The notes below the pieces were generated by a model, which was given only the letters and a program-made list of their open reading frames with translations, was not told where the DNA came from and did no database searches. A stretch of 64,000 nt of DNA, taken from NCBI GenBank assembly GCA_963752035.1, contig CAVVWZ010000031.1, positions 3,115 to 67,114 on the forward strand, given 5' to 3'. Numbering within the stretch: position 1 is the first letter of the stretch; every line of letters begins with the position of its first letter. This DNA comes from an uncultured delta proteobacterium. GTDB lineage: Bacteria; Desulfobacterota; WTBG01. This document shows positions 29,155-48,817 of this stretch, one piece after another. Made by a program: the position numbers and the translations under genes.

Positions 29155-32004
29155 ATGAAAAGCATTAGTGTCAGAGGGGCAAAGGAGCACAACCTGAAAA
29201 ATATCGACCTCGAAATCCCTCGTGACAAACTCGTGGTTATTACGGGCTTAAGTGGATCAGGGAAATCTTCCCTGGCTTTTGATACCATTTATGCGGAAGG
29301 TCAAAGACGGTACGTTGAATCCCTTTCTGCATATGCCCGCCAATTTCTGGAGCAGATGGATAAACCGGATGTGGAATCAATCGAGGGACTCTCTCCTGCC
29401 ATCTCTATCGAACAACGAACCCTCAGTAAAAACCCAAGATCCACTGTGGGTACCGTTACAGAAATCTATGACTACCTTCGGGTGCTTTTCGCTCGAATCG
29501 GAAAACCCTACTGTCACAAGTGTGGCAAGGAAATAAGTTCACAAACCATCCAGCAGATTGTCGATCAGCTCAAAGAACTGCCCCAGGGCTCAAAAATCAT
29601 CTTGTTTGCTCCCTTGATTCAGGGCAGGAAAGGTGAATACCGGAAAGAACTCAACCAGCTGCGGAAAAGTGGTTTTGCCAGGGTAAAAATAGATGGTCAT
29701 GTTAAAGACTTGAGTGAAGATATTACCCTGAACAAAAACAAGAAGCACACCATTGATGTGATGATTGACCGCCTGGTTATCAAGGAAAAGATTGAAAAAA
29801 GGTTAGCGGATTCCCTGGAAACGGCACTTAATTTGTCCGGTGGTATTGTCAAGATTGAACTCAATGGAACCAAAGAGTTGCTCTACAGCGAAAAAAATGC
29901 CTGTGTTGATTGTGGAGTCAGTTTCCCTGAAATTTCCCCGCGCATATTTTCCTTTAATAATCCCCATGGTGCCTGCCCTGCCTGTGGAGGCCTTGGTTCA
30001 AAAATGTATTTTGATCCCGACCTTGTGGTTCCTAATCGGAACCTTTCAATTCGTGAGGGTGCTATTCTTCCCTGGGCTAACAGAAAATCCATCTATTACC
30101 ATCAAATGCTTGATGCCCTCGCCCGTCACTACAAATTCGACATCTACACCCCCTTCAAAGACCTCCCCCCTCACCTCCAACAGATACTGCTTCACGGATC
30201 GGTTGATGAAAAGATTGATTTTTATTATGATGACGGCACCCGTCGCTTCTCCCATCAAAGAGAATTCATGGGGGTCATCCCCAACCTGGATCGCCGTTTT
30301 AAAGAAACTGATTCTTCCGCGGTCCGGCAGGAACTTGATCACTACATGAATACCAGCACTTGTCCGGATTGTTCCGGTTCCAGGCTGCGCAAAGAAAGTC
30401 TCTTTATTAAAATCAACGATCACTCCATCCACGACATTACTAAGCTTTCGATTACAGAAGCACATACATTCTTTTCCCGGTTGAATCTTAGCAAACGTGA
30501 TAAAAAGATCGCTCAGCGCATTCTTAAAGAAATTACCGAACGTCTCACCTTCCTCATGCATGTTGGTGTTGACTACCTGACCCTGAATCGGTCTTCGGCC
30601 ACACTTGCGGGTGGAGAAGGACAGCGTATAAGGCTCGCAACTCAAATAGGGTCAAGCCTCGTGGGGGTCCTCTACATTCTGGACGAACCCAGCGTTGGAC
30701 TTCACCAGAGAGACAACATTAAACTCCTTGAAACCCTGAAAAAGCTGAGAGACCTTGACAACACCGTACTGGTAGTGGAACACGATGAACAGACTATTTT
30801 AGCAGCAGATCATGTTATTGACATGGGTCCAGGGGCCGGCATGGCAGGAGGTGAGATTGTCTTCAGCGGTCCTCCCCGGAAAATTTTAAAGCACAGCGAG
30901 TCCTTAACCGGTAAATATCTCTCTCACCGGCTTAAGATTCCCATACCGCCTAAGCGCAGGAAGCCCTCTAATCGATTTCTCACCATTAACGGTGCAAGAG
31001 AAAACAATCTCAAAAATATTTCCGTCAAGATTCCTCTGGGTCTCTTTACCTGCATCACCGGTGTTTCCGGTTCAGGAAAAAGCACTCTGGTTATTGACAC
31101 CCTCTACCGCTCTTTAGCTCAACGGCTCTACCATGCTAAAGAGAAGGCAGGTAAGGTAGAAAGTATTGAAGGGTTAGAGTACACCGATAAGGTTATTGAT
31201 ATTGACCAGACGCCCATTGGAAGGACGCCCCGTTCCAATCCTGCTACCTACACCGGGACATTTACTCACATTAGAGATCTCTTTGCCCGTCTGCCTGAAT
31301 CACGTGCACGGGGCTACAAACCAGGCAGATACAGTTTTAATGTCAAGGGAGGGCGGTGTGAAGCCTGTACCGGTGATGGACTGATTAAAATCGAAATGCA
31401 CTTCCTCCCTGATGTTCATGTAACCTGCGAAGTCTGTAAGGGAAAACGATATAATCGGGAGACACTGGAGATACAGTACAAGGGCAAAAATATTGCCGAG
31501 GTCCTGGACATGACCGTAAACCAGGCCTTCTCGTTTCTCGAAACTATTCCCCCCATCAAAGCAAAACTGCAAACCCTTATTGATGTGGGTTTAGGATATA
31601 TCAGATTGGGACAATCTGCCACCACCCTCTCCGGGGGAGAAGCTCAGCGCATCAAACTGTCACGGGAACTGAGCAAACGAAGCACCGGCAGGACGCTCTA
31701 TATTCTCGACGAACCAACTACCGGCCTTCATTTTGCTGACATTCATAAACTCTTAGAGGTGCTCAACAAGCTCAACGATCGGGGGAACACCGTTATTGTT
31801 ATAGAACATAACATGGAGGTCATTAAAACTGCCGATTACATAATAGACCTGGGGCCGGAAGGAGGCGACAAGGGCGGGACCATTATTGCCATTGGCACAC
31901 CGGAGGAAGTAGGCAACAACAAAAAGTCTCATACAGGTCGTTTTTTAAAGGAAATCCTTCGGGAAAATCCGACCAGCAATTCAAGCAAAAAAAAGAAACC
32001 CTAA
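29155..32004 (+). CDS. uvrA: Excinuclease ABC subunit UvrA
   Basis: 949 aa with two ABC ATPase modules ([18 protein letters not shown], two LSGGE signatures) and zinc-finger CxxC pairs. Confidence 0.97.
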
Positions 32005-32033: not shown

Positions 32034-32090
32034 AGGGGTCAGGCCTACACATTTGACATGATTTTTGTCAAATGTGTAGGCCTGACCCCT
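32034..32090. repeat. Perfect 25+7+25 palindrome, copy 1 of a two-member family
   Basis: AGGGGTCAGGCCTACACATTTGACA / TGATTTT / TGTCAAATGTGTAGGCCTGACCCCT. It starts 30 bp after the uvrA stop. Confidence 0.85.
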
Positions 32091-32166
32091 TTAATTTGAC
32101 AGAAAACCGACATTATGCTTTAATGCGCTTAATGTTAAACACTCTTCACAAACAGAAAGGTAAACC

Positions 32167-34038
32167 ATGGTACTAGAAAAAGGCTATGCAGGAAAAGTGC
32201 TGCGGGTTAACTTATCAACCGGCAAGTCAACAACCGAGGACTTAAACGAAGATGCTGCGAGGCTCTTTATCGGGGGAAGAGGCCTGGGAGCCAAATATCT
32301 TTTCGATGAAGTTCCGGCCGGCACCGATCCACTGGGAGAAGACAATAAGCTCTATTTTCTTACCAGTCCTCTGGCAGGTACATCAGCTCAGTCAAGTTCC
32401 CGGTGGATGGTGGTTACCAAATCACCTCAAACCGGAATGTTTATACGCTCAACGGGGGGAGCTCAATTCGGGCACGAACTCAAGATCGCCGGCATAGACC
32501 TGCTTATCATTGAAGGAAAGGCGGAGAAGCCCACAACCATCGTAATACGGGATGATCAAGTCATTTTAAAAGATGCCGGCCACCTGTGGGGAAAGGAAAT
32601 CGCTACAGACACCCTCCAGGAAACACTTCGCAGTGAACTCGGTGACGACAAAATGCACATAGCATGCATCGGGTCTGCCGGGGAAAAGGGTACACTTTTC
32701 GCGGCAATTATGAGCGGCCGCCGGAGTGCAAGCAGGGGCGGTGTTGGAACAGTAATGGGAGCAAAGAACCTCAAGGCCATTGCAGTAAGAGGCACAGGAA
32801 AGATCGAGGTGGCTGACCGATCAAAACTTCAAACTATCACCAGGGACCTTGTATCCTCTGCCAGCAAAACCGACTTATTTAAGGCATTCTCCCACCTGGG
32901 AACTGCGGGTATGACCGCTTTGATGCACGAGATGGGAATGCACCCGGTGAAAAATTTTCAGCAAGGGCAGATGCCTGATTTTACCGGACTGGAATCAGAT
33001 AAGCTTGAAGAGCTTCAGGTAAAAAATGAAGGCTGTTTCGGTTGTTTTATTCAGTGTGGCTCTATCCTTCAGGTAAAACAAGGACGCTACAAGGGAAATC
33101 CTGTTTGCGGCCCGGAATACGAGACCATGTGGGCATTTGGTGCAAATCTCTTCAGTACAGATCTCGGTTTTGTCATAGCAGTTAATAAGCTCTGTGATGA
33201 TTTTGGACTGGATACAATCACCGCCGGGAGTAGTATTGCATTTGCCATGGAACTGTTTGAGAAGGGAATCCTTACCACGGGTGATCTTGATGGAGGTGAG
33301 CTCACCTGGGGTAATCATCAGGAGGCCTATAAACTGCTTATGAAAATTGTCAAGCGGGAAGGTATCGGTGACATACTGGCCCTGGGCACCAGAAAGGCAG
33401 CCGAAAAAATAGGGAAGAACGCCGAGCACTGTGCAATGCATGTTAAGGGCCTTGAAATACCGGCATATGAACCACGAGGGGCAAAGGCCCACGGTTTAAA
33501 CCTGGCCACATCAACTATTGGCGCAAGCCACATGACAGGATATTGCGGGCAGGAATTGTTTGGCATTCCAGAACAGATTGACCGATTCAGCACTGAGGGA
33601 AAGGGGGCCATCACCAAATACAACCAGGACAATGCAGCTGCCTATGACTCCCTGCTCATCTGCGGTTTTCCTGCTTGTTTTAATTGGATGATTCCCCACC
33701 ATTACGCCGAATTCCTTTCAGCCGCCACGGGCATTGAGGAATTTTCCGACAAGGACTACATACTCAAGAGTGGAGAACGGATTTTCAACATCGAGAAGGC
33801 ATTCAATCTGCGTGAAGGATGTGAGCGGAAAGACGACTATCTCCCCCAAAGATTTATTAAAGAACCTTTACCCGACGGTCCCTGCAAGGGCCAGGTTTTT
33901 GAAATGGATCTGCTTTTGGATGATTACTACAGGGCACGGGAGTGGGACCCAGAGTCAGGGTTTCCCACAGAAAGGAAGTTACTTGATCTCGGTCTGGAAT
34001 CAGAAGCCGAGACATTGAAACAAATCTCCCGAACATAA
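32167..34038 (+). CDS. aor: Aldehyde:ferredoxin oxidoreductase family (tungstopterin) enzyme
   Basis: 623 aa with the N-terminal GYAGKVLRVNLSTGK and GGRGLGAKYLFDE typical of the AOR family. Conserved C-containing motifs lie in the middle domain. Confidence 0.9.
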   Translation: MVLEKGYAGKVLRVNLSTGKSTTEDLNEDAARLFIGGRGLGAKYLFDEVPAGTDPLGEDNKLYFLTSPLAGTSAQSSSRWMVVTKSPQTGMFIRSTGGAQFGHELKIAGIDLLIIEGKAEKPTTIVIRDDQVILKDAGHLWGKEIATDTLQETLRSELGDDKMHIACIGSAGEKGTLFAAIMSGRRSASRGGVGTVMGAKNLKAIAVRGTGKIEVADRSKLQTITRDLVSSASKTDLFKAFSHLGTAGMTALMHEMGMHPVKNFQQGQMPDFTGLESDKLEELQVKNEGCFGCFIQCGSILQVKQGRYKGNPVCGPEYETMWAFGANLFSTDLGFVIAVNKLCDDFGLDTITAGSSIAFAMELFEKGILTTGDLDGGELTWGNHQEAYKLLMKIVKREGIGDILALGTRKAAEKIGKNAEHCAMHVKGLEIPAYEPRGAKAHGLNLATSTIGASHMTGYCGQELFGIPEQIDRFSTEGKGAITKYNQDNAAAYDSLLICGFPACFNWMIPHHYAEFLSAATGIEEFSDKDYILKSGERIFNIEKAFNLREGCERKDDYLPQRFIKEPLPDGPCKGQVFEMDLLLDDYYRAREWDPESGFPTERKLLDLGLESEAETLKQISRT

Positions 34039-34172
34039 ACAAGTGCCTATTCTTCATTGATCTTTCAAGATTACCTGTCCCTTTACCCTGCAGCTGAACT
34101 GTGGTGGTAGATGAGAAGCATACACTACAGTGTTTCTTTCTTCACCATTATCTGTCAAGGAGGTATTTAGAC

Positions 34173-34652
34173 ATGAAACAATCAGACCCTGTATCACACT
34201 GGCTCCCCTGCCCCGTAGTCTTTATCAGTACGGCTTACGGAGAAAAACGTGACATTATGACGGCAACCGCCATGTTCGTCTCAGAGAAAGAACCCCTTCT
34301 CGCAGTCAGCGTTGCAAAAGCACATCTCACCGCTCAACTCATTGAGCAGGCGGGTGCTTTTACACTGGTGATGGCATCTGCAGGCCAGCAGGAACTGGTC
34401 TGGAAATTAGGCAGCACAAAAGGGGATGAAGGTGACAAGTTTGCCCGTTTTGCTATAAACACCCTTCCCCCCGAACCGGGGAAGCCACTTGTCCCCGTGG
34501 AAGCTTCCTCCTGGATGGAATGCACAGTGGTGAGTCAACACCCTTTAGAAGGATATGTGCTGGTAATTGCCCGGGTAACCAACCAGGAAAATCTCGAAAA
34601 CCCTCCCCTCATGTGGCACGACCAGGCACTCTGTACCTTGAAATCACTCTGA
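34173..34652 (+). CDS. Flavin reductase-like (FMN-binding split-barrel) domain protein
   Basis: ATG at 34173 follows an AAGGAGG Shine-Dalgarno. The PVVFISTAYGEKRDIMTATAM pattern matches the flavin reductase domain. Confidence 0.7.
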   Translation: MKQSDPVSHWLPCPVVFISTAYGEKRDIMTATAMFVSEKEPLLAVSVAKAHLTAQLIEQAGAFTLVMASAGQQELVWKLGSTKGDEGDKFARFAINTLPPEPGKPLVPVEASSWMECTVVSQHPLEGYVLVIARVTNQENLENPPLMWHDQALCTLKSL

Positions 34653-34675
34653 GCTATTGCAGGGACATAGAGAAA

Positions 34676-35788
34676 ATGTACATGAGTGAAAACGGTGTAA
34701 TACAGCGAAGAGAAGATGGCCTTACTATTGTATCCCTTAAAGGGACACCCCTTGAGATGGGATTACAACATGGCACCCTGCTTAAAGAAGAAATAAGCAG
34801 AATACATGATCATGTTCTCTCCTACCTCTCTCAAATAAAACGGGGAGTATGGGGACGAACTGTGTATCCCCTCTTGCAACTACTTGTTTGGGGTTATAAC
34901 CTGTTCATACCGGCAGAATACAGGGAAGAGCTCAAGGGCATAGCACGGGGAGCCGGCCTCAGCTATTCTTCTATCCTCCTCATCAATGTGTTAGATGATC
35001 TGGGACATAAAATGGCCTGCTCCTGTTTTACTGTTACAGGGGCGAAGACTAAAGGGAATACACTCATCTATGGCAGAAACCTGGATTATGGAATATTCAC
35101 TGATTTGATGCCTTCTCTAAATACTATTTTTTGCTACCAGCCCAGCAGTGGTTTCCCGTTCGTCTCCGTGGCCTGGCCTGCCTATGCCGGGGTTGTGACG
35201 GGCATGAGTTCCAAAAAGCTGGTATTAGGAAGCCTAACCTCATTTTCCAAAGAAAAGGCCCGTATAGGAACACCATCGGGACTGTTATACCGAAAGGCCC
35301 TTCAATACGCATCTTCCCTAACAGATTTCCGAAAATCAATTATGAATGGACGCCGTACCATCAACAACAATCTCCTTATTGCATCCACCGGGGAGAGCGT
35401 TGTACTGGAGGTATCGCCCACCCGGGGCCAGTTGCGATCCCAACAGGATGATGTATTAACAGTTACCAATCACTTTCAAAACCCCTTCATGTCCGAGCTA
35501 AAAACCTTCTTCATGGCCAAACCACCCGGCTCTACACTGGAAGATGAACTTTTTACGGAACACTACAGTGTCGCCCGAAACGAACGGTTACAGCATCTCT
35601 GCAGAAAGGGAGCAATTGATATTGAGGAAGCCATTGCCATACTGCGGGATCCAAAGATAAGCAATGCAGGAACGGTGCAGAGCCTTTTACTCATTCCCGA
35701 ACGTTTAGAGCTGTGGGTTGCCAGGGAAACAACTGCGCCGGTTTCACAAGGTGAATTCATTCAACTGAAGGACCTCTTTTCAGGATAG
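34676..35788 (+). CDS. C45-family (acyl-CoA:6-APA acyltransferase-like) Ntn hydrolase
   Basis: About 370 aa from ATG 34676. A candidate nucleophile Cys sits in MACSCFTV, followed by YGRNLDY. The upstream part of ORF 34520 overlaps the preceding gene. Confidence 0.6.
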   Translation: MYMSENGVIQRREDGLTIVSLKGTPLEMGLQHGTLLKEEISRIHDHVLSYLSQIKRGVWGRTVYPLLQLLVWGYNLFIPAEYREELKGIARGAGLSYSSILLINVLDDLGHKMACSCFTVTGAKTKGNTLIYGRNLDYGIFTDLMPSLNTIFCYQPSSGFPFVSVAWPAYAGVVTGMSSKKLVLGSLTSFSKEKARIGTPSGLLYRKALQYASSLTDFRKSIMNGRRTINNNLLIASTGESVVLEVSPTRGQLRSQQDDVLTVTNHFQNPFMSELKTFFMAKPPGSTLEDELFTEHYSVARNERLQHLCRKGAIDIEEAIAILRDPKISNAGTVQSLLLIPERLELWVARETTAPVSQGEFIQLKDLFSG

Positions 35789-35930
35789 CATTCTCAAGGT
35801 CCTCTTCTTTCCAAATCGCACCTTTATCTTTTCCTTGACGCACGTGAAAACCTCCCTTATACTTTTTCCATTACTAAAAACCCCCACTCGTTTACTCCTG
35901 TTAGTAGATCTTCTCTGAGAAGGAGTTACT

Positions 35931-36503
35931 ATGAAAGCAACCGTAAGCACCATTGGACTGATAATCATTGTTGTTCTTCTAACACTTTCTTACTACGGAT
36001 TCTTTGCGAAGGTTACCATAGTAGAAAAGGAGATCGGTGACTTCTGGTTACTCTACGAGAAACATGTCGGGGACTATAAGGAAACCGGGCAGGTAATGGA
36101 CAGAATCTATTCCAGGTTATTGGGTGAAGATGCAATTGCACCCTCAAGAGGATTTGGGCTCTACTTTGATGATCCCAAAAAGGTAGAGAAAAAACACCTG
36201 AGGAGTATTGCAGGATGTATCTTAGATGGACAGGATGAAGGTAAAATTAACTATTTAAAAACCAACTACCAGGTAAAAAAATATCCTGCTTCAACAAGTG
36301 TTGTTGCTGAATTCCCCTTTAAGGGAACCCCCTCCATTCTTATGGGTGTAATTAAGGTCTACCCCAAACTCACGGAATACATAGCACAACACAATTATCC
36401 GCCGGTTCCAATCATGGAAATATATGACACGCCTAATGGAAAGATTTCCTATATCGCCTCTGTAAATCTGGATGGGCAGGTTTTTGATGATCTTCTGGAA
36501 TAG
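35931..36503 (+). CDS. Membrane-anchored GyrI-like (small-molecule-binding) domain protein
   Basis: 190 aa with an N-terminal TM helix. The remaining pattern (HVGDYKETGQVMDRIY...GLYFDDP) is as in GyrI-like/SOUL-type domains. Confidence 0.45.
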   Translation: MKATVSTIGLIIIVVLLTLSYYGFFAKVTIVEKEIGDFWLLYEKHVGDYKETGQVMDRIYSRLLGEDAIAPSRGFGLYFDDPKKVEKKHLRSIAGCILDGQDEGKINYLKTNYQVKKYPASTSVVAEFPFKGTPSILMGVIKVYPKLTEYIAQHNYPPVPIMEIYDTPNGKISYIASVNLDGQVFDDLLE

Positions 36504-36685
36504 GCCCTCAAGAGAAGTGCCTTTAATCCTCTCACATTCCTGCTATCATCCCGCCGGTGTAGGTTGTTATTAATTATTTGCAAAACCGGGAAAATACTAT
36601 ATACTGATTCTCAAGTTTGCAAACCCTATAGCACAAGGGATTTATAGACTGGAACATCCCAGCATTAAGGAGACCATCTGCAACA

Positions 36686-37240
36686 ATGGACCGAAAGACA
36701 AAAATGATCTATAGACATAACCGATTACTGTTGCTCAGCATTTTCTTACTCTTGGCAAACATCCTTGTTTATAGTGCAGGGGGAGAAGATGCTCGCCTTC
36801 ACGCTAAAGAGACCTTTGATTTTTCTCTCGAGACTTTAGAAGGTGAAAAGATCCAGCTTAAGGATTATCGAGGTAAAAAGGTTGTACATCTTGTGTTCTG
36901 GTCTACATGGTGTCCTAAATGTCTGATAGACATGGCGAAACTAAAAGAGCTGTGGAAAACTATGGAGAACAGTCCCTATGAAATATTGGCCGTAAATGTG
37001 GGACTGAATGAATCGAAGAAAAGAATCCATAAGATACGCAGTGAATACCAGATCCCCTTCAGAATTGTCCTGGATAATAAGAGTAAGGTAACAAAAGATT
37101 TTGGTGTAATGAGTATTCCCTTTAACATTATAATCGACAAGGACGGTACTATAACAGATCGCTTTAGTGACCTGCCCAAGGATCCAAAAGACCTTCTCAA
37201 TAAAGTGTCCCTGGGTCAGCTCAATCACCTGGACCACTAA
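36686..37240 (+). CDS. TlpA-family thiol:disulfide oxidoreductase (thioredoxin fold)
   Basis: 184 aa with a signal/anchor sequence and the WSTWCPKC active-site motif. Confidence 0.8.
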   Translation: MDRKTKMIYRHNRLLLLSIFLLLANILVYSAGGEDARLHAKETFDFSLETLEGEKIQLKDYRGKKVVHLVFWSTWCPKCLIDMAKLKELWKTMENSPYEILAVNVGLNESKKRIHKIRSEYQIPFRIVLDNKSKVTKDFGVMSIPFNIIIDKDGTITDRFSDLPKDPKDLLNKVSLGQLNHLDH

Positions 37241-37277
37241 ACGGTTTAAACAAAGATCAGACAACTTATCCGATAAA

Positions 37278-37308
37278 GGGCGTGGTATAGTATACCACGC
37301 CCTTTTTT
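37278..37308 (+). terminator. Rho-independent terminator
   Basis: GGGCGTGGTATA-G-TATACCACGCCC stem followed by T6. Confidence 0.75.
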
Positions 37309-37431
37309 GACTTTTCACTCATTATCTGCACACATGCTGCCGATACATATATTATACTATCGTATAAGTTCATATTGTACAGATAAGGTGCTTTTAGTTA
37401 ATTTTAATGATCAAATGGAAAGGAACGTGCT

Positions 37432-38995
37432 ATGGATAGTCTCAAAAAATCGAGCTTGTTTCTTATGGTTGCACTGACCCTGGTTGGACTACTGACAGCC
37501 CTGCACACTAAAGGAATAGCCCGTGCAGAAGGGAATTTCCCTCTACTCTATTCTGATGGTACCCTTCCTTCCCGTTCTGCTTCTGGAGATCCTTTGTTAC
37601 TTGGGAGGTTTACCTCCTATCCCACAGACCCTACTGCAGATATTCCCTGGTCATGTGGATTCTCCGGGGTGGACCAGATACAGTGTGCATTCAACAACGC
37701 CCGCTCAGCTGAAAACACCCAGCTGGGAACATCCCTTCCCCCGGTGACATTGCCGTCCCAGGCTACATGGGATGGCTATGAGTGACGGTGAAAAAGCCCT
37801 GTGGCTCATCAATCGAGAACGTGATGATCGGGACCTGGATCCCTTAGAGCAGATAGAGTCTAATGTCACCGATGTAGCCCAAACCTATGCAGATTTTCTC
37901 TTAGACAACGATGCCTGGGGACATTATGAAAACGGTCTTTCACCCTGGGAACGGCTAAATGAAAACCCGGTAATTCTGGACTGCCATGACAACCTGTCCG
38001 TAGCTGAAAATCTGGCAGTCTTTGTTTCAACCGGCACTATTCCCCTCCCGGTGGTGCGGTCCGTATACATGTGGATGTATGATGATGCGGGATCCGCTTG
38101 GGGTCACAGACATGCAATTTTGTGGTATCCCTATAACGACAACAGTGGTCTTGGCGGGATGGAAGGTTTTATGGGCATCGGCCGGGCAAGTGGCGGACCC
38201 TATCAGGGGCCGTTTGCCAGTCCATGGCCATTTGCTGAAATGATTGTTATGAACGTCTTCGATCCCTGCAAAACCTGGGAGTACGATTCAACTACTTCAT
38301 CATCCACGTCACCGACAACCACAACTTCAGCATCATCTTCTTCGACGACCTCTTCAGCCATCCCCTCTTCCACAACCACATCAACGGAACCGGGCACATC
38401 AACCTCTACCCCTTCAACCAGCACAACTCCACCCGGCATAACAACCACCACGGTACAGGGGACCTCCACGATCCCCCCTGGGACTACCACAAGTATCACA
38501 GGGTGCTCCCTAAGTATGGTACCCCAGTCTGAACACATTGCATCCATGCAGTCTTTGACATTTACTGTGCTCCCCCAGGGTGACTGCAATGATCCTGATT
38601 ATGAATGGTTGCTGGAAACCACTATTGGTAGCAGTTGCGACCAGGGAGGTAATTACACTGCCGGGGACAACCCTAACATGCTTACGCCGGCAACCGATAT
38701 AGTAACCGTGGTTGACCATGCAAATAATGACAGTAACGCCCATGCGTCGGTTGATGTCTTTTTTGCATGTCCTTCTAAACATCTCTACGGTGGCGATTCA
38801 GAGGAAGTATACCTTCTGAGGAAATTTCGTGATGATGTGCTCAGCTCAACACCCGAAGGAAAACAACTTATAGAATTGTACTACAGGTGGAGCCCTCTTC
38901 TGCTTAAAGCTATGGTGGAAGATGAGGAATTTGAAGATGAGATAAGAAACATGCTGGGTGGTATTTTACCCAGAATTAAAAAAAGTCTTAAGTGA
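37432..38995 (+). CDS. Secreted CAP/SCP-domain protein with a Ser/Thr-rich linker and C-terminal domains, frame broken near 37775
   Basis: Signal peptide in ORF 37432-37785. The CAP-like core (LWLINRERDDRDLDPL...AENLA...WGHRHAIL) continues in ORF 37772-38995. A 70-aa S/T/P tract spans 38285-38480. Confidence 0.6.
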
Positions 38996-39005
38996 CATTC
39001 CTCTT

Positions 39006-39028
39006 CCCTCTCCCCTCAGGGGAGAGGG
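39006..39028. repeat. GC-rich hairpin between convergent genes (CCCTCTCCCC-TCA-GGGGAGAGGG)
   Basis: Perfect 10-bp stem. It is a possible bidirectional terminator or REP-like unit, with no clear T-tract. Confidence 0.4.
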
Positions 39029-39068
39029 ATGGGGTGAGGGGGAAATTCCATTTTCGAATCAACAATTG

Positions 39069-40139
39069 TTACGGACGTGCTTCAAATACAACATTAATAG
39101 GGGTTTCCACTACCCGGTTAAAGCGGGTAAACCCCCCTGATTGCAAGACCTCACGCAGCCTCGCCTCCCCGGCTTGACCTCCTAAAGCGACGCCTCCTTC
39201 CTGATTGAGGGCACAGGGAACACAGATCAATACGGAAGCACAGTAATACAGCCTCCCTATCGGGGTCAGGTTGTCTTCAACCCGGTCCCCTGCAAATGGT
39301 TCCACAATCATCCATGTACCATCACGTTTAAGTGATTTAAGCACATGGGACGATGCAGCCACAGGATCTCCCATATCGTGCAGGCAGTCAAAGGCTGTAA
39401 CAAGATCATAGTTAGTGCCGGAAAAGGTGGTGCCCGAAGCTACTTCAAACCGCACCCGATCTGAAACACCGGCTTCTTCGGCCTTCCTGCGTGCAGCTGC
39501 AATCGACACATCATGGGGATCGGAACCATAAAAGGTTGAGTGAGGGAAGGCCTGGGCCATAATGATGGTTGACGTTCCACATCCGCAGCCAATATCAGCG
39601 ACGGAAGCCCCTTTGTGCAGTTTGTCTTCAACCCCATCAAGGGCGGGAATCCATGACTGCACAAGGTGGGTCAAGTAGTTAGGGGTATAAAACCGGTCTC
39701 CCCCTTCTGCCAGCTTCTGGTCATGCTCGTCCCATCCAAATCCTTTGCCGGTCCGGAACGCATCGACAATCTTCTCTTCAGAACGGATAGCTGCGGTGGC
39801 AGCCTGGAAGGCTCCCGGCAGATAGACCGGGCTGTTCTCGTCTGCAAAGGCAAATGCCTGTTCATCCGAAAGGCTGTACTGTTCCGATTCCGGATGGTAA
39901 TCCACATAACCCCCGGAAGCCATTGCCGGAAGCCATTCACGAACGTAACGCTCAGATGTTCCCGTCCGCTCTGCCAGTTCAGCGGATGTCATTTGACCCT
40001 GGCCGGCCATGGCCTTAAACAGGCCAAGTTTCTCCCCGATCAAAACCAGCGGGGCATGGAATGCTGCACCGATATCTTCGATAACTTTTTGTACGATACT
40101 GTTGAGCTTCGTTTCGTCAAGTGGCATAACATTTTCCAA
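39069..40139 (-). CDS. Class I SAM-dependent methyltransferase with an N-terminal winged-helix-like dimerisation domain
   Basis: 356 aa with SAM motif I VADIGCGCG and downstream motif YDLVTAFDCLHD. Confidence 0.8.
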   Translation of the reverse strand: MENVMPLDETKLNSIVQKVIEDIGAAFHAPLVLIGEKLGLFKAMAGQGQMTSAELAERTGTSERYVREWLPAMASGGYVDYHPESEQYSLSDEQAFAFADENSPVYLPGAFQAATAAIRSEEKIVDAFRTGKGFGWDEHDQKLAEGGDRFYTPNYLTHLVQSWIPALDGVEDKLHKGASVADIGCGCGTSTIIMAQAFPHSTFYGSDPHDVSIAAARRKAEEAGVSDRVRFEVASGTTFSGTNYDLVTAFDCLHDMGDPVAASSHVLKSLKRDGTWMIVEPFAGDRVEDNLTPIGRLYYCASVLICVPCALNQEGGVALGGQAGEARLREVLQSGGFTRFNRVVETPINVVFEARP

Positions 40140-40228
40140 TTAGCACAGGTTTATAAAATGGAGCAGTATAAGAAAAACCATGGTTAGTGTCAATTAAAAC
40201 CATTCGAAACAGAAAATCGATCCTGCCC

Positions 40229-42361
40229 CTATTTTTGTTTCATCGAGAGGCTAATCCTCTTCCTTGGAATATCCACTGAAAGTACGGTTACAGTAACCTG
40301 CTGATGGAGTTTGATTACTTCAGCAGGGTTTTTCACAAACTTGTCTGAGAGCTCACTTATGTGCACCAACCCATCCTGGTGCACACCAACATCCACAAAA
40401 GCACCGAAATTGGTTATATTGGTAACGATACCGGGGAGCTTCATCCCGACTTCTAAATCTTCAATGGCACATATGTCGTTGGCAAAACTAAACTGCTTAA
40501 AGGTCTCTCTCGGGTCACGGCCCGGTTTTGCGAGCTCAACCATTATATCACGTAAGGTGGGCAGGCCTGCCGTGGTGCTTACATAGCTCTTCAAATCTAT
40601 TTGTGAGCGTACTGTTTCATCCTGCATTAAGTCCCTGACCGCACAGTTAAGATCCCCTGCCATCTGCTCAACAATGCAATAACTCTCCGGGTGCACGGCG
40701 CTTGCATCGAGGGGGTTAGCACCATCCCTTATTCTCAGGAAACCCGCTGCCTGCTCAAACGCTTTTTTTCCCAGCCCGGAAACTTTTTTAAGTTCTGCCC
40801 GGGACGCGAAGGGACCCTGCTCATCTCTGTAATCCACAATGGACTGGGCACGTTTTGGCCCCAGCCCGGAAACGTAGGACAGAAGCTGCTTGCTGGAAGT
40901 ATTCAGTTCTACGCCAACCTTGTTCACACAGCTCTCCACTACATGGTCAAGTTTTTCCTTTAACAGTTTTTGATCAACATCATGCTGATATTGCCCCACC
41001 CCAATAGATTTAGGTTCGATTTTGACAAGTTCTGCGAGGGGATCCATCAGCCGTCTCCCAATGGATACAGCTCCTCTCACCGTTACATCGTAATCAGGAA
41101 ATTCCTTCCGGGCCACCTCTGAGGCAGAATAAACTGACGCCCCGTTCTCACTCACCATTACCACTGCAGTATCACCTGGCAGTTGTAATGTGCGAATAAA
41201 GGATTCTGTTTCTCTTCCTGCTGTACCATTACCTACCGCTATCATTTCTATCTGGTACCTGTCACAGAGATTACGGATTATGTCTTCGGCTTCTTTCCGT
41301 TTGCTGTGGGGTTCGTGCGGATATATCGTAGTATTCTGGAGAAGCTTTCCCTGGCTGTCTAAACAGACCACCTTACACCCTGTACGAAAACCGGGATCAA
41401 TGGCCATGACCCTCTTTTGTCCTAACGGAGGTGCAAGTAACAGTTGACGAAGATTTTCCGCAAACACCCTGACTGCTTCTTCGTCAGCTTGATTTTTAGC
41501 AGTAGATCTGATTTCATTCTCCATTGACGGGGACAAGAGCCTTTTATAACCATCCACTACCGCCATGTGCACCTGTTCTGAAACACCATTACCATTGGTA
41601 ACAAAGTGATCTTCCAGTAGTCCCAGGGCATCTTTTTCATCAGGGCGAATGTGTAGCATCAAAAAAGCTTCCTTTTCCCCCCGCATCATTGCAAGTAAGC
41701 GGTGAGATGGAACCCTTTTAACCGGTTCTTCCCAATCGAAATAGTCTTTGTACTTAAGGGCTTCTTCTGCTTTCACGCCAATTACTTTTGTCTTGATGAG
41801 GCCACGATCAGTAAAGAGCTCCCTTATGGCGGCTCTCGCAACCTGATCCTCACTGATGTGCTCGGCAATAATGTCCCGCGCTCCCTGGAGTGCATCTTCG
41901 GCAGTTTCAACACCTTTTTCCAAGTCAATATAGTTGGTTGCCTCCTTTAACAAATCGACGTCATCCTGCTTCATTATCAAATCTGCAAGGGGTTGAAGCC
42001 CCCGTTCCCGTGCAATGGTTGCCCTGGTTCGACGCTTTGGTTTGAAAGGCAGGTAGATATCCTCGAGCACTGCGATGGTTTCTGCGACCATCAGTTTTTT
42101 ATGCAACTCTTCCGTAAGCAATTCCCGTTCTGAAAGAGATTTTACTATTGCATCACGCCGTTTATCCAACTCTCGTAACTGATGTAACCTGTCCCGAACA
42201 GCACCAATGACTATCTCATCTAAGCTGCCGGTTGCCTCTTTCCTATAACGGGATATAAAAGGAATGGTGGACCCATCGTCTAAAAGCTGGGCAGTGACAT
42301 CAACCTGTTTTTCACTTAACTGCAACTCCCTTGCAATCTTCTTACTATGTTCCGGATTCAT
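40229..42361 (-). CDS. tex: Transcription accessory protein Tex (S1 RNA-binding)
   Basis: 710 aa. It has the N-terminal Tex domain (TIPFISRYRKE), a YqgF-like domain, HhH motifs, and a C-terminal S1 domain (GIVTNITNFGAFVDVGVHQDGLVHISE). Confidence 0.9.
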   Translation of the reverse strand: MNPEHSKKIARELQLSEKQVDVTAQLLDDGSTIPFISRYRKEATGSLDEIVIGAVRDRLHQLRELDKRRDAIVKSLSERELLTEELHKKLMVAETIAVLEDIYLPFKPKRRTRATIARERGLQPLADLIMKQDDVDLLKEATNYIDLEKGVETAEDALQGARDIIAEHISEDQVARAAIRELFTDRGLIKTKVIGVKAEEALKYKDYFDWEEPVKRVPSHRLLAMMRGEKEAFLMLHIRPDEKDALGLLEDHFVTNGNGVSEQVHMAVVDGYKRLLSPSMENEIRSTAKNQADEEAVRVFAENLRQLLLAPPLGQKRVMAIDPGFRTGCKVVCLDSQGKLLQNTTIYPHEPHSKRKEAEDIIRNLCDRYQIEMIAVGNGTAGRETESFIRTLQLPGDTAVVMVSENGASVYSASEVARKEFPDYDVTVRGAVSIGRRLMDPLAELVKIEPKSIGVGQYQHDVDQKLLKEKLDHVVESCVNKVGVELNTSSKQLLSYVSGLGPKRAQSIVDYRDEQGPFASRAELKKVSGLGKKAFEQAAGFLRIRDGANPLDASAVHPESYCIVEQMAGDLNCAVRDLMQDETVRSQIDLKSYVSTTAGLPTLRDIMVELAKPGRDPRETFKQFSFANDICAIEDLEVGMKLPGIVTNITNFGAFVDVGVHQDGLVHISELSDKFVKNPAEVIKLHQQVTVTVLSVDIPRKRISLSMKQK

Positions 42362-42412
42362 AAAAGCCTTTCATCACATCTGGATAATGTAGGTTGGTTC
42401 ACTACAGTTCAA

Positions 42413-43469
42413 TCACATAATCAGCCAGGGTTGGGGCAGGAAAATTTTCTCATAGAAGTTGAAGGCATATCGATCTGTCATGCCTGCGACAAAATCACAC
42501 ACTCGACGTTCTAATGATTCACCAGCACCGGGCCAGGAATATTCCTTAAGGAATTCATCTTCGTGATCCAGGAAATAGTGATAGAGTTCCCTCAGTATCT
42601 TTGAGGCCTTAATAAAATTGGAGTAAACTGCAGCTCCAAAATATACTTCTCTATAGAGGTACTCCCGCAGTTTTACTGTTTTCTCCATAACCGGTTGACT
42701 TAAGGTAATCTGCTCTCCCCCTGTCTCCTCTCCGACCTTCAATACATCTTTTACCATTACATCTATCCTGCGGGCCTGGGAATCACCAAGGAATGAAATA
42801 CAATCCTGTGGAAGATCATGATGAGAAATAACTCCAGCTCTCAGCGCATCGTCAATGTCATGATTGACATAGGCGATGATATCAGCAACTCTCACGATCT
42901 GTCCCTCCAGGGTTGCGGGCATGAATTGAGGATCACTTGCAATGATATCGCCCTCTCCTTTCGAGTGTTTCAAGAATTCCATCACGAACCTCATGGGTCA
43001 AATTCAGCCCTTTACCGTCCTTTTCCAAAATATCAACCACCCGCAAGCTCTGTTCGGGATGACGAAATCCACCGGGGAAGATCTCATTGAGAACCGCCTC
43101 ACCTGCATGTCCAAAGGAGGTGTGACCGAGATCATGGCCGAGGGCTATTGCCTCGGTCAGATCTTCATTTAATCGAAGGGATTTTGCTATGGTCCGGGCT
43201 ATTTGGGAGACCTCCAGGGTGTGGGTCAATCGGGTACGATAGTGATCACCCGTTGGGGCCAGAAAAACCTGTGTTTTGTGTTTGAGCCGTCGAAAGGATT
43301 TTGAATGGAGAATCCTGTCCCGGTCGTGCTGAAAAGCGGGCCTTATCTCACATAGATCCTCTTCAATCTTTCTTCCCCTGGTCCGGGAACTGAGCTGGGC
43401 AAGAGGGGAAAGTCTTAATTCTTCATCCTGCTCAAGCATTTCGCGGATACTCATTGTATGCCTCCTCAC
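42413..43469 (-). CDS. dGTP triphosphohydrolase-like HD-domain protein, frame broken near 42968-42970
   Basis: ORF 42933-43469 holds [15 protein letters not shown] and [13 protein letters not shown] 42413-42994 continues with KHSKGEGD...[17 protein letters not shown]. The join lies at a 3-nt homopolymer. Confidence 0.8.
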
Positions 43470-43806
43470 CGGTATATCACTAGTACTAAAAACAGCAACC
43501 TAGATTTCATGTAACCACCCCTAAGGTACCATAAAAAATATAAACAGTAATAGAAAAATATAGGGATTTTTCACTTAACATCTAAAGATAACCAGTTAAT
43601 TATTCAGTTAAAAACACGGAAAGATCACTTTTTTAGACATATTTCACTAGCAACCCTTGACAATGAGAAAAGAAGAATTATATTATAATGTTAACTTAAA
43701 TTAACCAACATAGCCCAAAACAGAGTGAACTATCTGAAATAAAAAGATAAAAATCAACAGTTTACCTCTAAAAATCAATTTTTTTCACTATTCTCCAAAA
43801 AAACAG

Positions 43807-43835
43807 TTGATTAAATGGGAAAAAACAGCTAAATT
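43807..43835 (+). promoter_or_regulatory. Putative groESL promoter (TTGATT-N17-TAAATT)
   Basis: The hexamers lie directly upstream of the CIRCE element. Confidence 0.45.
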
Positions 43836-43836
43836 A

Positions 43837-43863
43837 TTAGCACTCATCAAGAAAGAGTGCTAA
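43837..43863 (+). promoter_or_regulatory. CIRCE operator (HrcA binding site)
   Basis: TTAGCACTC-N9-GAGTGCTAA is a perfect match to the CIRCE consensus, 115 bp upstream of groES. Confidence 0.9.
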
Positions 43864-43977
43864 TATGCTTTATATATAATGCAATTCAGATTAAAGGAGG
43901 TGGTGAACGTAATACAAATCTGGGTGTTTTAAGTAATCTATTCAATAATCTATTAGTAAACAGGAGGTTTTAAAAAG

Positions 43978-45925
<1,948 letters not shown>

Positions 45926-45948
45926 AAACCGCTTTAAAAAACTACAAA

Positions 45949-45987
45949 AAGAGAGAGCTCCTCAAAGAGGGGCTCTCTCTTTTTTTG
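45949..45987 (+). terminator. Rho-independent terminator after groEL
   Basis: AGAGAGAGCTCC...GGGGCTCTCTCT stem followed by T7. Confidence 0.7.
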
Positions 45988-46023
45988 ACAGTACAATCAT
46001 TCAGGTCTCATATATGCTTCCAT

Positions 46024-46449
46024 TTAAAACGGTATATCATCTTCTGTGTTTATATCCGGGGTACTATCGTTGGAGGGAGGAGGACCGAGGTCACTTCCAC
46101 CTGATCTTACCTGATCTCCTGCAGTGCCAAGCATCTGCATTATGCCGGCAACAATCTCCGTTGTTTTGCGCTTGTTGCCATCACGATCCTCCCAATCCCT
46201 TGTCTGCAGTCTTCCTTCAATGTACACCTGCTTGCCCTTAGCGAGATACTCACCGCAAATTTCACCCAATTTCCCAAAGGCAACAATGCGATGCCACTCA
46301 GTCCTCTCCGTCTTCTCACCACTTTTGTCGGTAAAGTTTGTGCTGGTAGCAATGTTGAAATTGGCTACAGGTGTTCCCGTATTGGTGTATCTCACCTCGG
46401 GATCAGCACCTAAACGACCTAAAAGGATAACCTTATTTACACCCGCCAT
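46024..46449 (-). CDS. ssb: Single-stranded DNA-binding protein
   Basis: 141 aa with an OB-fold N-terminus ([17 protein letters not shown]), a Gly/Pro-rich tail and a terminal DDIPF. Confidence 0.95.
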
Positions 46450-46531
46450 TGTTTCCTCCTCACTAAAAAATTAATAAATTGAAATGTGCCAGAATTCTAG
46501 CACCAATCGAAATAAAGTCAACCCATTACTC

Positions 46532-46585
46532 GGGGTCAAACCTACACTTTTGACAAAAAAATGTCAAAAGTGTAGGTTTGACCCC
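46532..46585. repeat. Perfect 24+6+24 palindrome, copy 2 of the family seen at 32034
   Basis: GGGGTCAAACCTACACTTTTGACA / AAAAAA / TGTCAAAAGTGTAGGTTTGACCCC. It lies in the divergent ssb / 46916-gene spacer. Confidence 0.85.
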
Positions 46586-46915
46586 CAAAACAAGGAATAC
46601 TCATCACCGGATCTTCAAGGGTTTGCCCCCCATGTGTTTGAGTTGGAATGTCAAACTGGGTTCTAACTTATTGGATTGTAAGATCTTTGGTAAATGTCAA
46701 AGTTTTCCTCTCTATCGAGGTACCACCATATGTAGTTTAAATTGGGGACATATAAGATACATTAATATTGATTTAGAAAGGATTTTATGGTTTAATTTAA
46801 TATCATAAAAACAATATTAGGTGTTCAGATGAAGACACTTTTTAACATAACCCTACCTCATCTTAGACAGAGCAATCTAACCGGTGGGGTTTATCTGTTT
46901 GAGGGAGGGGAAACA

Positions 46916-48817
46916 ATGAAAAAATTATCTGTATTCACTATGGTTTTTTTAATTGTTTGCATCTCTACTTCTGTAAGCTACAGCGAATATTATTGGGCAA
47001 AGACTTATGGTGGGCCGGTATGACGTTGCCGAATCTATCATAAAAACTACTGATGGTAGGTTTCTTGTTTCCGGTGTTGCTAATCCGTTGGGCCAGGTGA
47101 ATTTGATTGGTCGATAACGAAAGTTGGCAGTAATGGGGAAATTCTCTGGCAAAAAACTTTTGGTGCAAGTATTGGTGGATTACGGAAGTCCATCATTGCA
47201 TCAAACAACCGATGGAAACTATCATAGTCACAGAGTTATTCCGATTCTTTTGGTGCTGGTGACCGGATGCATGGATATTAAAGTTTGATTCAGTGGCAAT
47301 GATTATTATGGCTGAAGACTTACGGAGGAGTGGCTATGATGATGCTCAATCCATCCAGCAGACACAGATGAGGGGTATATAGCAGTAGGAAGTACCGGCT
47401 CTTTTGGCGATGGGAGTTCTGACATATGTGTTATGAAACTCCATTCCAATGGAAATATTATGTGGCAGAAGACATATGGGGGAGAAGGTTATGATTAGTG
47501 CAGCAATCTATCCAGGAAACCTCAGATGGAGGATATATAGTCGTGGGATCAACATCCCTTTCTGGAGATGAATGGGGAGATAGTTTTCGCTTTAAAACTC
47601 AACAGTACCGGTGATATTTCCTGGTCGAAGGCTTTTGGTGTGTGCTGTGGAGATTTTGGTGAATTTGCTCACGAAGTTCTAGGAGAAGGATACATTGTAG
47701 GGGGAACTAATTACCATGAGGGTTATTATTACTACTGGCTGCTTAAGCTCGACTACAGCGGGAACATTACCTGGCAAAAAATGTATGGAATTTATGAGGC
47801 TGCGAACCATGCCTTTTCTTTTCACCAAACAGCAGATGGAGGATATGTTATAGCAGGTAGTTCTCTAGTATTTAGTCCAAGTGTAAATGATTTTGCTCTT
47901 GTGGTTAAATTAGATGGTAACGGTGATGTATTGTGGCACAAAACTTATGATGTAGGTGAATATACTACCATTATGTCTATCCAGCAAACAGTAGCAGGAG
48001 GGTACATAATGGTAGGTCATGCAGGATTTGGAACCACCTGGGAATCAAGATGTTTTAATATTCCAACTTGATAACACAGGGAACATTCCTGATTGTGATC
48101 TGATAAGTAATAAATATTTCATTTTTTCTGAAACAACTGTTTCACCTGAAGATTTTAGCTTTACCGTTCAAACATCAATTCCCACTATTACAGACACTAC
48201 TATTGTACCCCAAGATTTTTCAACAGTGATTTCTGATATCTGCTGTTATGATGATACCAGCGATGCTGACCAGGATGGTGTAGGAGATGTTTGTGATCCT
48301 GATGATGATAATGATGGAGTATGTGACCCGGGTGTTTCTGATTCCATATGTACCGGATCAGACAATTGTCCTTATACACCAAATGGTTCTGAAGGAGGTA
48401 CCTGCACTGCGGGAGCAACCTATAAAATTGGTAGGCCCTGCATAAATCATGCTGAATGTGAAGCGAGTGGCTTCTGAAGTACAAATCAGGAAGATACTTA
48501 TCCTCCAGAAGGGAATGGAATAGGAGATGCTTGCGAGTGTGAAGGGAACTTTGATTGTGATGAAGATCATGATGGCTCTGATGCCGCAACCTTCAAGATA
48601 GATTTTGGACAGAAGCACATTTAGCAATCCTTGCGAAACTAGTGATCCATGCAATGGAGATTTTGATTGTGATAACGATTGTGATGGGACTGATGCTGCA
48701 AAATTCAAAGAAGATTTCGGAAGAAGTGGTTTTAACAATCCCTGTCCTACTTGTGAAGTAGGAGATTGGTGTGTATATCCCTACAATAGTTTGAATCATT
48801 CTTCTGATGACCAGTAA
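46916..48817 (+). pseudogene. Secreted repeat protein A, heavily frame-broken. Domains: signal peptide, about seven W-x-K-T-Y-G-G type propeller-like repeats, TSP3-like D-rich repeats, dockerin-like CxGDFDCDxDxDGxDAxxFK repeats
   Basis: It begins MKKLSVFTMVFLIVCISTSVSYS. Homologous repeat units can be followed only by switching frame many times between 47000 and 47570. Longer intact pieces are 47568-48071, 48019-48477 and 48605-48817. There is an in-frame TGA at 48475. Confidence 0.6.

Follow-up and report, generated by a model that had tools for sequence, protein, structure and literature searches.

Two palindromes in a Desulfobacterota genome are very probably gene-less terminal-repeat doublets of a TIRYT-type element

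Two long palindromes in a 64,000-nucleotide (nt) stretch of DNA from an uncultured delta proteobacterium (Desulfobacterota; GenBank assembly GCA_963752035.1, contig CAVVWZ010000031.1, positions 3,115 to 67,114; hereafter the window) are very probably doublets made from the terminal inverted repeat (TIR) of a TIRYT-type element without its gene, with a hairpin architecture like that of REPINs. The repeat family belongs to a known, little-studied class of small mobile DNA, and the window palindromes are the most compact gene-less form of its TIRtron/TIRYT arrangement (4–7-nt loop). The assembly under study (G000) comprises 1.93 Mb in 102 contigs with 45% G+C and is 69% complete. In our labels, G denotes a genome, C a contig of that genome and L a locus or contig stretch fetched from other DNA.

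Read directly from the sequence, each palindrome consists of an arm, a short loop and the exact complement of the arm (Table 1), and the arms of the two copies differ at three positions (GG/AA and A/T), all mirrored in the opposite arm, as a preliminary description of the window had reported. Its statement that both copies are perfectly self-complementary applies to the arms and not to the whole sequences, as the loops differ in sequence and length and neither is palindromic. Folded as single-stranded DNA, copy 1 reached −30.5 kcal/mol (z −12.7) and copy 2 reached −27.5 kcal/mol (z −11.6), and none of 200 dinucleotide shuffles was as stable. The TTGACA hexamers that the description placed next to the loops are indeed there and mark the inner end of each terminal repeat. 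Pfam matches and the open reading frames also agree with the gene setting it gave, with copy 1 between uvrA and an aldehyde ferredoxin oxidoreductase gene and copy 2 in a divergent region; the genes beside copy 2 are ssb and a broken secreted-protein gene.

The window holds only these two copies, and the claim of a two-member family is right within it and wrong for the genome. Searching all of G000 with the consensus arm GGGGTCARRYCTACACWTTTGACA at up to two mismatches gave 48 arm matches, with none for the reversed control pattern. They make up 21 clean doublets, four degenerate doublets and five single arms on 24 contigs. In the doublets the arms are joined inner end to inner end, so each folds into a 24-bp hairpin; loops of the 21 clean doublets measure 4–7 nt (6 nt in 11) and are almost purely A/T. 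By a crude call of open reading frames (ORFs), on which all gene-context tallies rest, 17 of the 21 lie outside ORFs in a genome that is about 80% coding; 11 stand between tandem genes, five between divergent genes (copy 2 included), three between convergent genes and two at contig ends, and many are no more than 20 nt from a gene end. The family of about 25 doublets is thus neither limited to two copies nor confined to terminator-like 3′ ends. No consistent target-site duplication was present at the 21 doublets, nor any target motif beyond A/T-rich flanks, and an Rfam search of the whole window returned no matching family.

Three host ORFs run into a doublet (C15:28104-28964, C16:10849-11781 and C30:11998-13008), their last 7–25 residues and stop codon being doublet-derived; one closes with ...GQTYTFDKKMSKV before its stop. 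By eye, one of these ORFs is TatD-like and another radical-SAM-like; the third encodes 337 amino acids (aa). Doublet insertions appear to have rewritten the ends of these three host genes. G000 is the richest in arms among 41 relatives (48, versus 20 in the next and 0–4 in the others, with 0–3 in same-family relatives) and also heads the 47 genomes sampled for arm counts (next 20, others 0–13). Doublet spacers in other genomes measure 17–234 nt, giving elements of 65–282 bp, whereas G000 and one same-family genome join the arms by just 4–7 nt.

Elsewhere, the same arm brackets a transposase gene. We surveyed transposases using one genome per species, obtaining 456 relatives in 600 candidate stretches, and examined arms in the best 80 loci, which come from Desulfobacterales, Geobacter, Syntrophobacter, Thermodesulfovibrionia, Nitrospirota, Chlorobiota and others. 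At least one arm was present at 74 of these 80 loci, and 57 carried an inverted pair 950–1500 bp apart (mode 1037 bp). In three same-class genomes (L017–L019) the 24-nt arm forms an inverted pair of 1052–1062 bp around an ORF of 312–317 aa. The enclosed protein scored 84.5 and 91.5 bits against the NCBIfam model NF047646 (REP-associated tyrosine transposase (RAYT) equivalog, cut-off 80) and matched Pfam Y1_Tnp with 55 bits; every aligned sequence keeps the HUH motif (H60-Y61-H62) and Y119. A Bac_DnaA_C match at its C-terminus was weak, at 19.2 and 17.2 bits against a cut-off of 31.5, and a PDB sequence search with the transposase profile gave no match. The 24-nt end is nearly unchanged among transposases from several phyla that are only 52–63% identical. 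The arms of L067 are identical to the commonest haplotype of G000, and the UvrA of its host is 64% identical to that of the window, versus 70% for the same-class genome G011.

In the full elements L017–L019 the gene runs into the 3′ arm, its frame closing ...S-R/K-V-stop and its stop codon being the TAG of GTGTAG. The 5′ arm ends in TTGACA, with TATGGT or TATAAA 17 nt further on in these three elements; TTGACA is perfect in 41 of the 57 elements, 25 fit TAnnnT, and the best −10-like hexamer at 16–18 nt averages 3.5 of 6 matches, versus 2.45 at control offsets. In the 5′ arm of the full element, TTGACA is placed like a −35 box and may act as a promoter element. A corresponding outward-firing promoter in the doublet was considered and set aside: its own TTGACA-17-TAGGTT matches only 3/6 of the −10 hexamer, below the scan criteria, and the idea stays speculation.

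These features correspond to a published class. Di Nocera, De Gregorio & Rocco (2013; PMC3733652) described RAYT-like genes with long terminal inverted repeats in place of REP hairpins, calling the elements ‘TIRtrons’ and their products ‘TIRYTs’, and reported a common motif GGGGWSAS, 3′ repeats that overlap the gene, and TIR families dispersed in moderate abundance, often as dimers. Quentin et al. (2018; PMC6006769) equated TIRtrons with TnpA_Y1 subclass 2.1, of which subgroup 2.1.2 has a Bac_DnaA_C-like C-terminus. The arm start GGGGTCAG of the G variants fits GGGGWSAS, and that of the AAC variant, GGGGTCAA, misses the last position only. A single arm folds weakly (−1 to −3.5 kcal/mol, with z-scores not significant for G variants), so it is a TIR rather than a classical REP, and the family is accordingly TIRtron/TIRYT.

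The mirrored substitutions extend through the family. Fifteen of the 21 clean doublets are perfectly symmetric, in six haplotypes, of which AAC-A is shared by seven doublets, GGT-A by three and GGC-A by two. Across all 21 we counted six arm–arm mismatches, versus 41.6 expected when right arms were shuffled (minimum 16 in 20,000 trials). Copy 1 is a head-to-head doublet of haplotype GGC-A, matched by the doublet at C34:8473-8526, and copy 2 is the sole symmetric AAC-T doublet in the assembly; other AAC-T arms occur in two asymmetric doublets (C16:11738 and C27:29507). The seven AAC-A doublets have identical arms at unrelated loci, and arm symmetry probably stems in part from shared descent. One copy, C17:6281, has a private change of A13 to C (CTCCAC) on both arms.

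Arms far apart agree as well. In gene-bearing elements, the two arms within a locus show 2.1 differences over 24 positions (0.6 over the outer 16) and arms of different loci 6.0 (3.3 over the outer 16), and positions 9, 10, 13, 14 and 16 agree between arms in 53–57 of 57 loci versus 28–45 expected from column composition, both comparisons being uncorrected for shared ancestry. This covariation of arms 1 kb apart is a new point from the present analysis, and because of it local hairpin pairing is not the sole constraint. Its simplest reading would be that both ends need to fit one protein. The arm core CTACACA (positions 11–17, for example 32045-32051 in the window) includes TACACA, a match to the TnCACA of the DnaA box TTWTNCACA, with a chance of roughly 4% per 24-nt arm by a rough estimate; as a lead only, this core might be read by the DnaA-C-like domain of the enzyme.

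We propose that the full element is a pair of inverted 24-nt arms around a gene for a Y1/HUH tyrosine transposase related to RAYT/TnpA_REP, and that the doublets retain just the two arms, joined inner end to inner end through 4–7 mostly A/T bases into a 24-bp hairpin. The enzyme would recognize both arms and move or copy doublets in trans through single-stranded DNA, leaving no target-site duplication, as IS200/IS605-type enzymes do. Copies would then persist in intergenic DNA, with some overwriting the final codons of genes. The cognate gene may be located in the 31% that the assembly lacks; otherwise the family would be an orphan. Mirrored substitutions probably have three sources, namely descent from symmetric master copies, the fit of two arms to one protein and templated correction from arm to arm. 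Compensatory changes are reported to be common in REPINs (Bertels & Rainey 2011, PMC3116915), and template switching between arms, which turns imperfect inverted repeats perfect, is an established mutational route at quasipalindromes (PMC7202029). As a possible route here, it corresponds to the templated foldback copying raised in the preliminary description.

Related environmental sequences indicate how the doublets turn over. A metagenome scan found exact AAC-A doublets in six contigs; exact doublets were demanded, and arm conservation among the matches was not used as evidence of selection. Two contigs, L192 (92% identical to C30 over 2.5 kb) and L197 (93% identical to C15 over 1.1 kb), carry a doublet at the same site as G000. 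The orthologous doublets at L192:2107-2160 and C30:11966-12019 have identical arms and complementary loops (AAAAAA versus TTTTTT), so the palindrome has either flipped at its site or inserted again the other way round. L194 is anchored on both flanks, being 91% identical to C61 on one side with about 26 nt matched on the other, and has a doublet at a place taken up in G000 by 25 nt of unrelated letters. In L196, which matches C79 at 96.7% identity over 1.9 kb, a doublet follows about 75 nt after the alignment stops; C79 has none, and the far flank is too short to anchor. In four marine-sediment runs the repeat words of copy 1 had a depth of 96–137×, versus roughly 0–40 in neighbouring bins, so this repeat is multi-copy. 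Doublets thus seem to persist for long periods with some gain or loss, the signs of mobility itself being indirect.

Several points weigh against reading the palindromes as TIRYT-type doublets. No cognate-type transposase gene is present in the 69%-complete assembly, an absence that is not readable as loss because 31% of the genome is missing. The assembly has three Y1-domain loci: a frameshifted IS200 on C29 and two long genes on C38 and C94, which share 30–40% identity with the cognate type and are flanked by other repeats. Cutting or binding of the arms by the enzyme is presumed from sequence comparison, and hairpin recognition of the IS200 kind is drawn by analogy, single arms folding weakly. 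The gain-or-loss site in L194 and C61 lacks base-level definition, as the intergenic spacers differ. In the four marine-sediment runs, neither excision nor insertion was seen at copy 1: there was no empty site, and contigs broke at the repeat.

A rival reading is that the doublets are orphan relics, with the cognate transposase lost, the copies immobile and vertically inherited, and symmetry kept only by template switching between arms. We regard this as possible but doubtful. It draws on the cognate gene not being found, on the two doublets at conserved sites in contigs only 92–93% identical, on the loop inverted between unchanged arms, as strand switching between arms predicts, and on template switching at quasipalindromes being established (PMC7202029). 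Yet the assembly is just 69% complete, the 48 arms, more than in any of the 41 relatives, indicate a lineage-specific expansion, identical arms recur in seven doublets at unrelated loci, and at least one site differs in presence between genomes that are roughly 91% identical. A related idea, which we think improbable, is that this lineage may keep a large population of symmetric minimal hairpins with no transposase of its own, correcting arms by one-step template switching and depending for movement on the two non-cognate resident TIRYT paralogues; the evidence cited for the one-step reading is the CTCCAC change on both arms of the C17 copy together with the orthologous copy with an inverted loop.

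It is very unlikely that the doublets are primarily functional RNA or DNA signals (bidirectional terminators, mRNA-end stabilizers or RNase III sites) rather than mobile DNA. Their hairpins are very stable, many copies end up within 20 nt of a gene end, three ORFs finish inside a doublet, and copy 1 lies 29 nt past the uvrA stop and is followed by TTTAATTT. However, promoter and terminator scans at both copies reported nothing within the palindromes, a T-run is absent at most copies, five of the 21 doublets (copy 2 among them) stand between divergent genes, and the arm is the end of a transposase element at 57 loci in other genomes. Secondary effects of the doublets on transcripts could occur.

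The regulator binding site also raised in the preliminary description, as operators of a dimeric transcription factor defining a regulon, would account for the perfect dyad symmetry, the mirrored substitutions and the position of copy 2 in a divergent promoter region, but is scarcely credible: the gap between half-sites ranges over 4–7 nt, some copies follow genes, stand between convergent genes or extend over gene ends, the flanking genes are functionally unrelated, and other genomes have the same arms on both sides of a transposase gene, 1 kb from each other. Equally remote are miniature inverted-repeat transposable elements (MITEs) that originate from a DDE-type insertion sequence and depend on it to move: a pair of terminal inverted repeats that has lost its interior, and the 65–282-bp versions in related genomes, give the right layout, yet the lack of target-site duplication at the 21 doublets is in keeping with a Y1/HUH enzyme and speaks against a DDE-type MITE, and that enzyme is the sole gene type found between the arms (57/80 loci).

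The preference for a REP- or MITE-like mobile palindrome over a terminator is therefore supported for a repeat of mobile-element type, by about 25 doublets in mixed contexts and arms around a RAYT-type gene, and not for a classical REP hairpin or a DDE-type MITE. The suggested association with a RAYT holds in other genomes, where 57 of 80 loci bracket a RAYT-type Y1 gene, and not in G000, where no cognate gene was found. Association with an IS200-like gene was rejected. The end hairpins of the C29 IS200 (CCCCGCCC-ACA-GGGCGGGG and CCCCGTTT-ACAA-AACGGGG) are unrelated to the arms, and the one doublet near it, with two tRNA genes between, was judged a coincidence. The first of these hairpins recurs beside a single arm at C98:50545.

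The genes around the two copies and the resident Y1 genes are listed in Table 1. Because the C94 and C38 genes carry their own distinct inverted repeats, G000 contains three separate families of such repeats; doublets of the C38 and C94 types are about 180–210 bp long and include C23:16375-16558 and C81:3539-3753. Neither window copy has a usable empty site. Among paralogous leaders of secreted-protein genes, similarity begins 50 nt beyond copy 2, giving no paralogous empty site, and the uvrA 3′ flanks of two same-family genomes (UvrA 86–87% identical) have neither a following aldehyde ferredoxin oxidoreductase gene nor an arm. An exact look-up of the SSB protein for sister strains found none on record.

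Table 1. Coordinates of the palindromes, neighbouring genes and resident Y1 genes (window positions unless a contig is given)
Feature	Location	Strand	Description
Copy 1	32034-32090		25-nt arm AGGGGTCAGGCCTACACATTTGACA, loop TGATTTT, exact complement of arm; read from sequence
Copy 1, inner layout	32035-32058 and 32066-32089; loop 32059-32065		24-nt consensus arms; extra A:T pair closing each end
Copy 2	46532-46585 (arms 46532-46555 and 46562-46585; loop 46556-46561)		24-nt arm GGGGTCAAACCTACACTTTTGACA, loop AAAAAA, exact complement of arm
uvrA	29155..32004	+	Pfam UvrA_DNA-bind, UvrA_inter, ABC_tran; stop codon 29 nt ahead of copy 1
Aldehyde ferredoxin oxidoreductase gene	32167..34038	+	Pfam AFOR_N, AFOR_C; start 76 nt past copy 1, tandem with uvrA
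ssb	46024..46449	-	Pfam SSB; copy 2 sits 82 nt upstream of start
Promoter-like site TTGACT-16-TAGAAT	46521 to 46494	-	Promoter scan; between copy 2 and ssb, outside the palindrome
Secreted repeat-protein gene in several broken frames	46829..48477	+	Signal-peptide-like start, repeated ‘DGGY’ motifs, TSP_3 match
Degenerate doublets	C16:10427, C24:5394, C26:16358, C102:6988		
TIRYT-like Y1 gene	G000:C94:1775-2794		340 aa; own inverted repeats GGGGACGTTCCTGC..., 11 dispersed copies
TIRYT-like Y1 gene	G000:C38:38346-39347		334 aa; own inverted repeats GGGGACGTTGTTGAC... (GGGGACGTTGTTGACTAAGTTGAAT), 7 dispersed copies
IS200-type transposase gene, frameshifted	G000:C29:540-1090	-	Frames 723-1013 and 572-760 (gene 572-1013)

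Other repeats were noted along the way. The leader upstream of the broken secreted-protein gene (about 270 nt, from window position 46635) has copies of 75–88% identity at C31:53670, C59:24120, C78:14163 and C37:18198. Two single arms, at C32:5405-5460 and C32:14137-14192, lie inside one 56-nt unit that is 98% identical between the two places; here the arm is carried within another repeat. Two further dispersed repeat families are a 29-nt sequence (about ...CGCAGAGACGCAAAGAGCGCAAAGAT..., C32:5375-5403), with more than 30 occurrences on about 25 contigs at 93–100% identity, and a unit of about 35 nt, AATGAGCTAAATTGCCTAAAATGCCTAAATTAAAA (C32:14097-14131), with about 20 occurrences in the genome. 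In another genome, the start of G003:C195 (L023:1-120) has a 52-bp doublet whose 15-nt flanks are exact inverted repeats of each other, which probably reflects fold-back during assembly where the contig ends and is thus an artefact.

The doublets add a clear, compact example to a named, hardly studied class, of which, to our knowledge, no enzyme has been biochemically characterized. A single 24-nt end carries both a −35-like box and the stop codon of the gene, and the covariation of arms at 1 kb argues that such repeats are constrained by protein recognition as well as by hairpin pairing. Annotation of G000 also gains an explanation for about 30 repeats between genes and for several gene ends that have been altered.

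Compared with known systems, the family is closest to TIRtrons and their TIRYTs, with which it shares a Y1/HUH gene of about 315 aa, long inverted repeats starting GGGGWSAS, a 3′ repeat lying over the gene end, moderately abundant dispersed repeats that are often dimers and perhaps, by a sub-threshold match, a DnaA-C-like C-terminal helix-turn-helix; it differs in that the G000 dimers are bare arms with a 4–7-nt loop (52–55 bp) and that the cognate gene is not in the G000 assembly. With the IS200/IS605 group it has in common the HUH/Y1 catalytic domain and the lack of target-site duplication, whereas the ends of that group are subterminal hairpins and not inverted repeats. The REPIN/RAYT systems of Pseudomonas and Enterobacteria (PMC3116915; Nunvar 2010; E. 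coli TnpA_REP) likewise have extragenic inverted doublets that form a long hairpin with compensatory changes, and one related Y1 enzyme, encoded between copies of the repeat, and the protein described here passes the NCBIfam RAYT model. Their unit, however, is a REP stem-loop of 20–40 nt with a 5′ GTAG tag, whereas ours is a 24-nt terminal repeat nearly devoid of a hairpin of its own, in which GTAG occurs only within the arm, where it includes the stop codon of the gene, and the protein is about twice as long, with an extra C-terminal domain. The doublets thus resemble REPINs in how they work, but fall outside the classical REP/RAYT systems.

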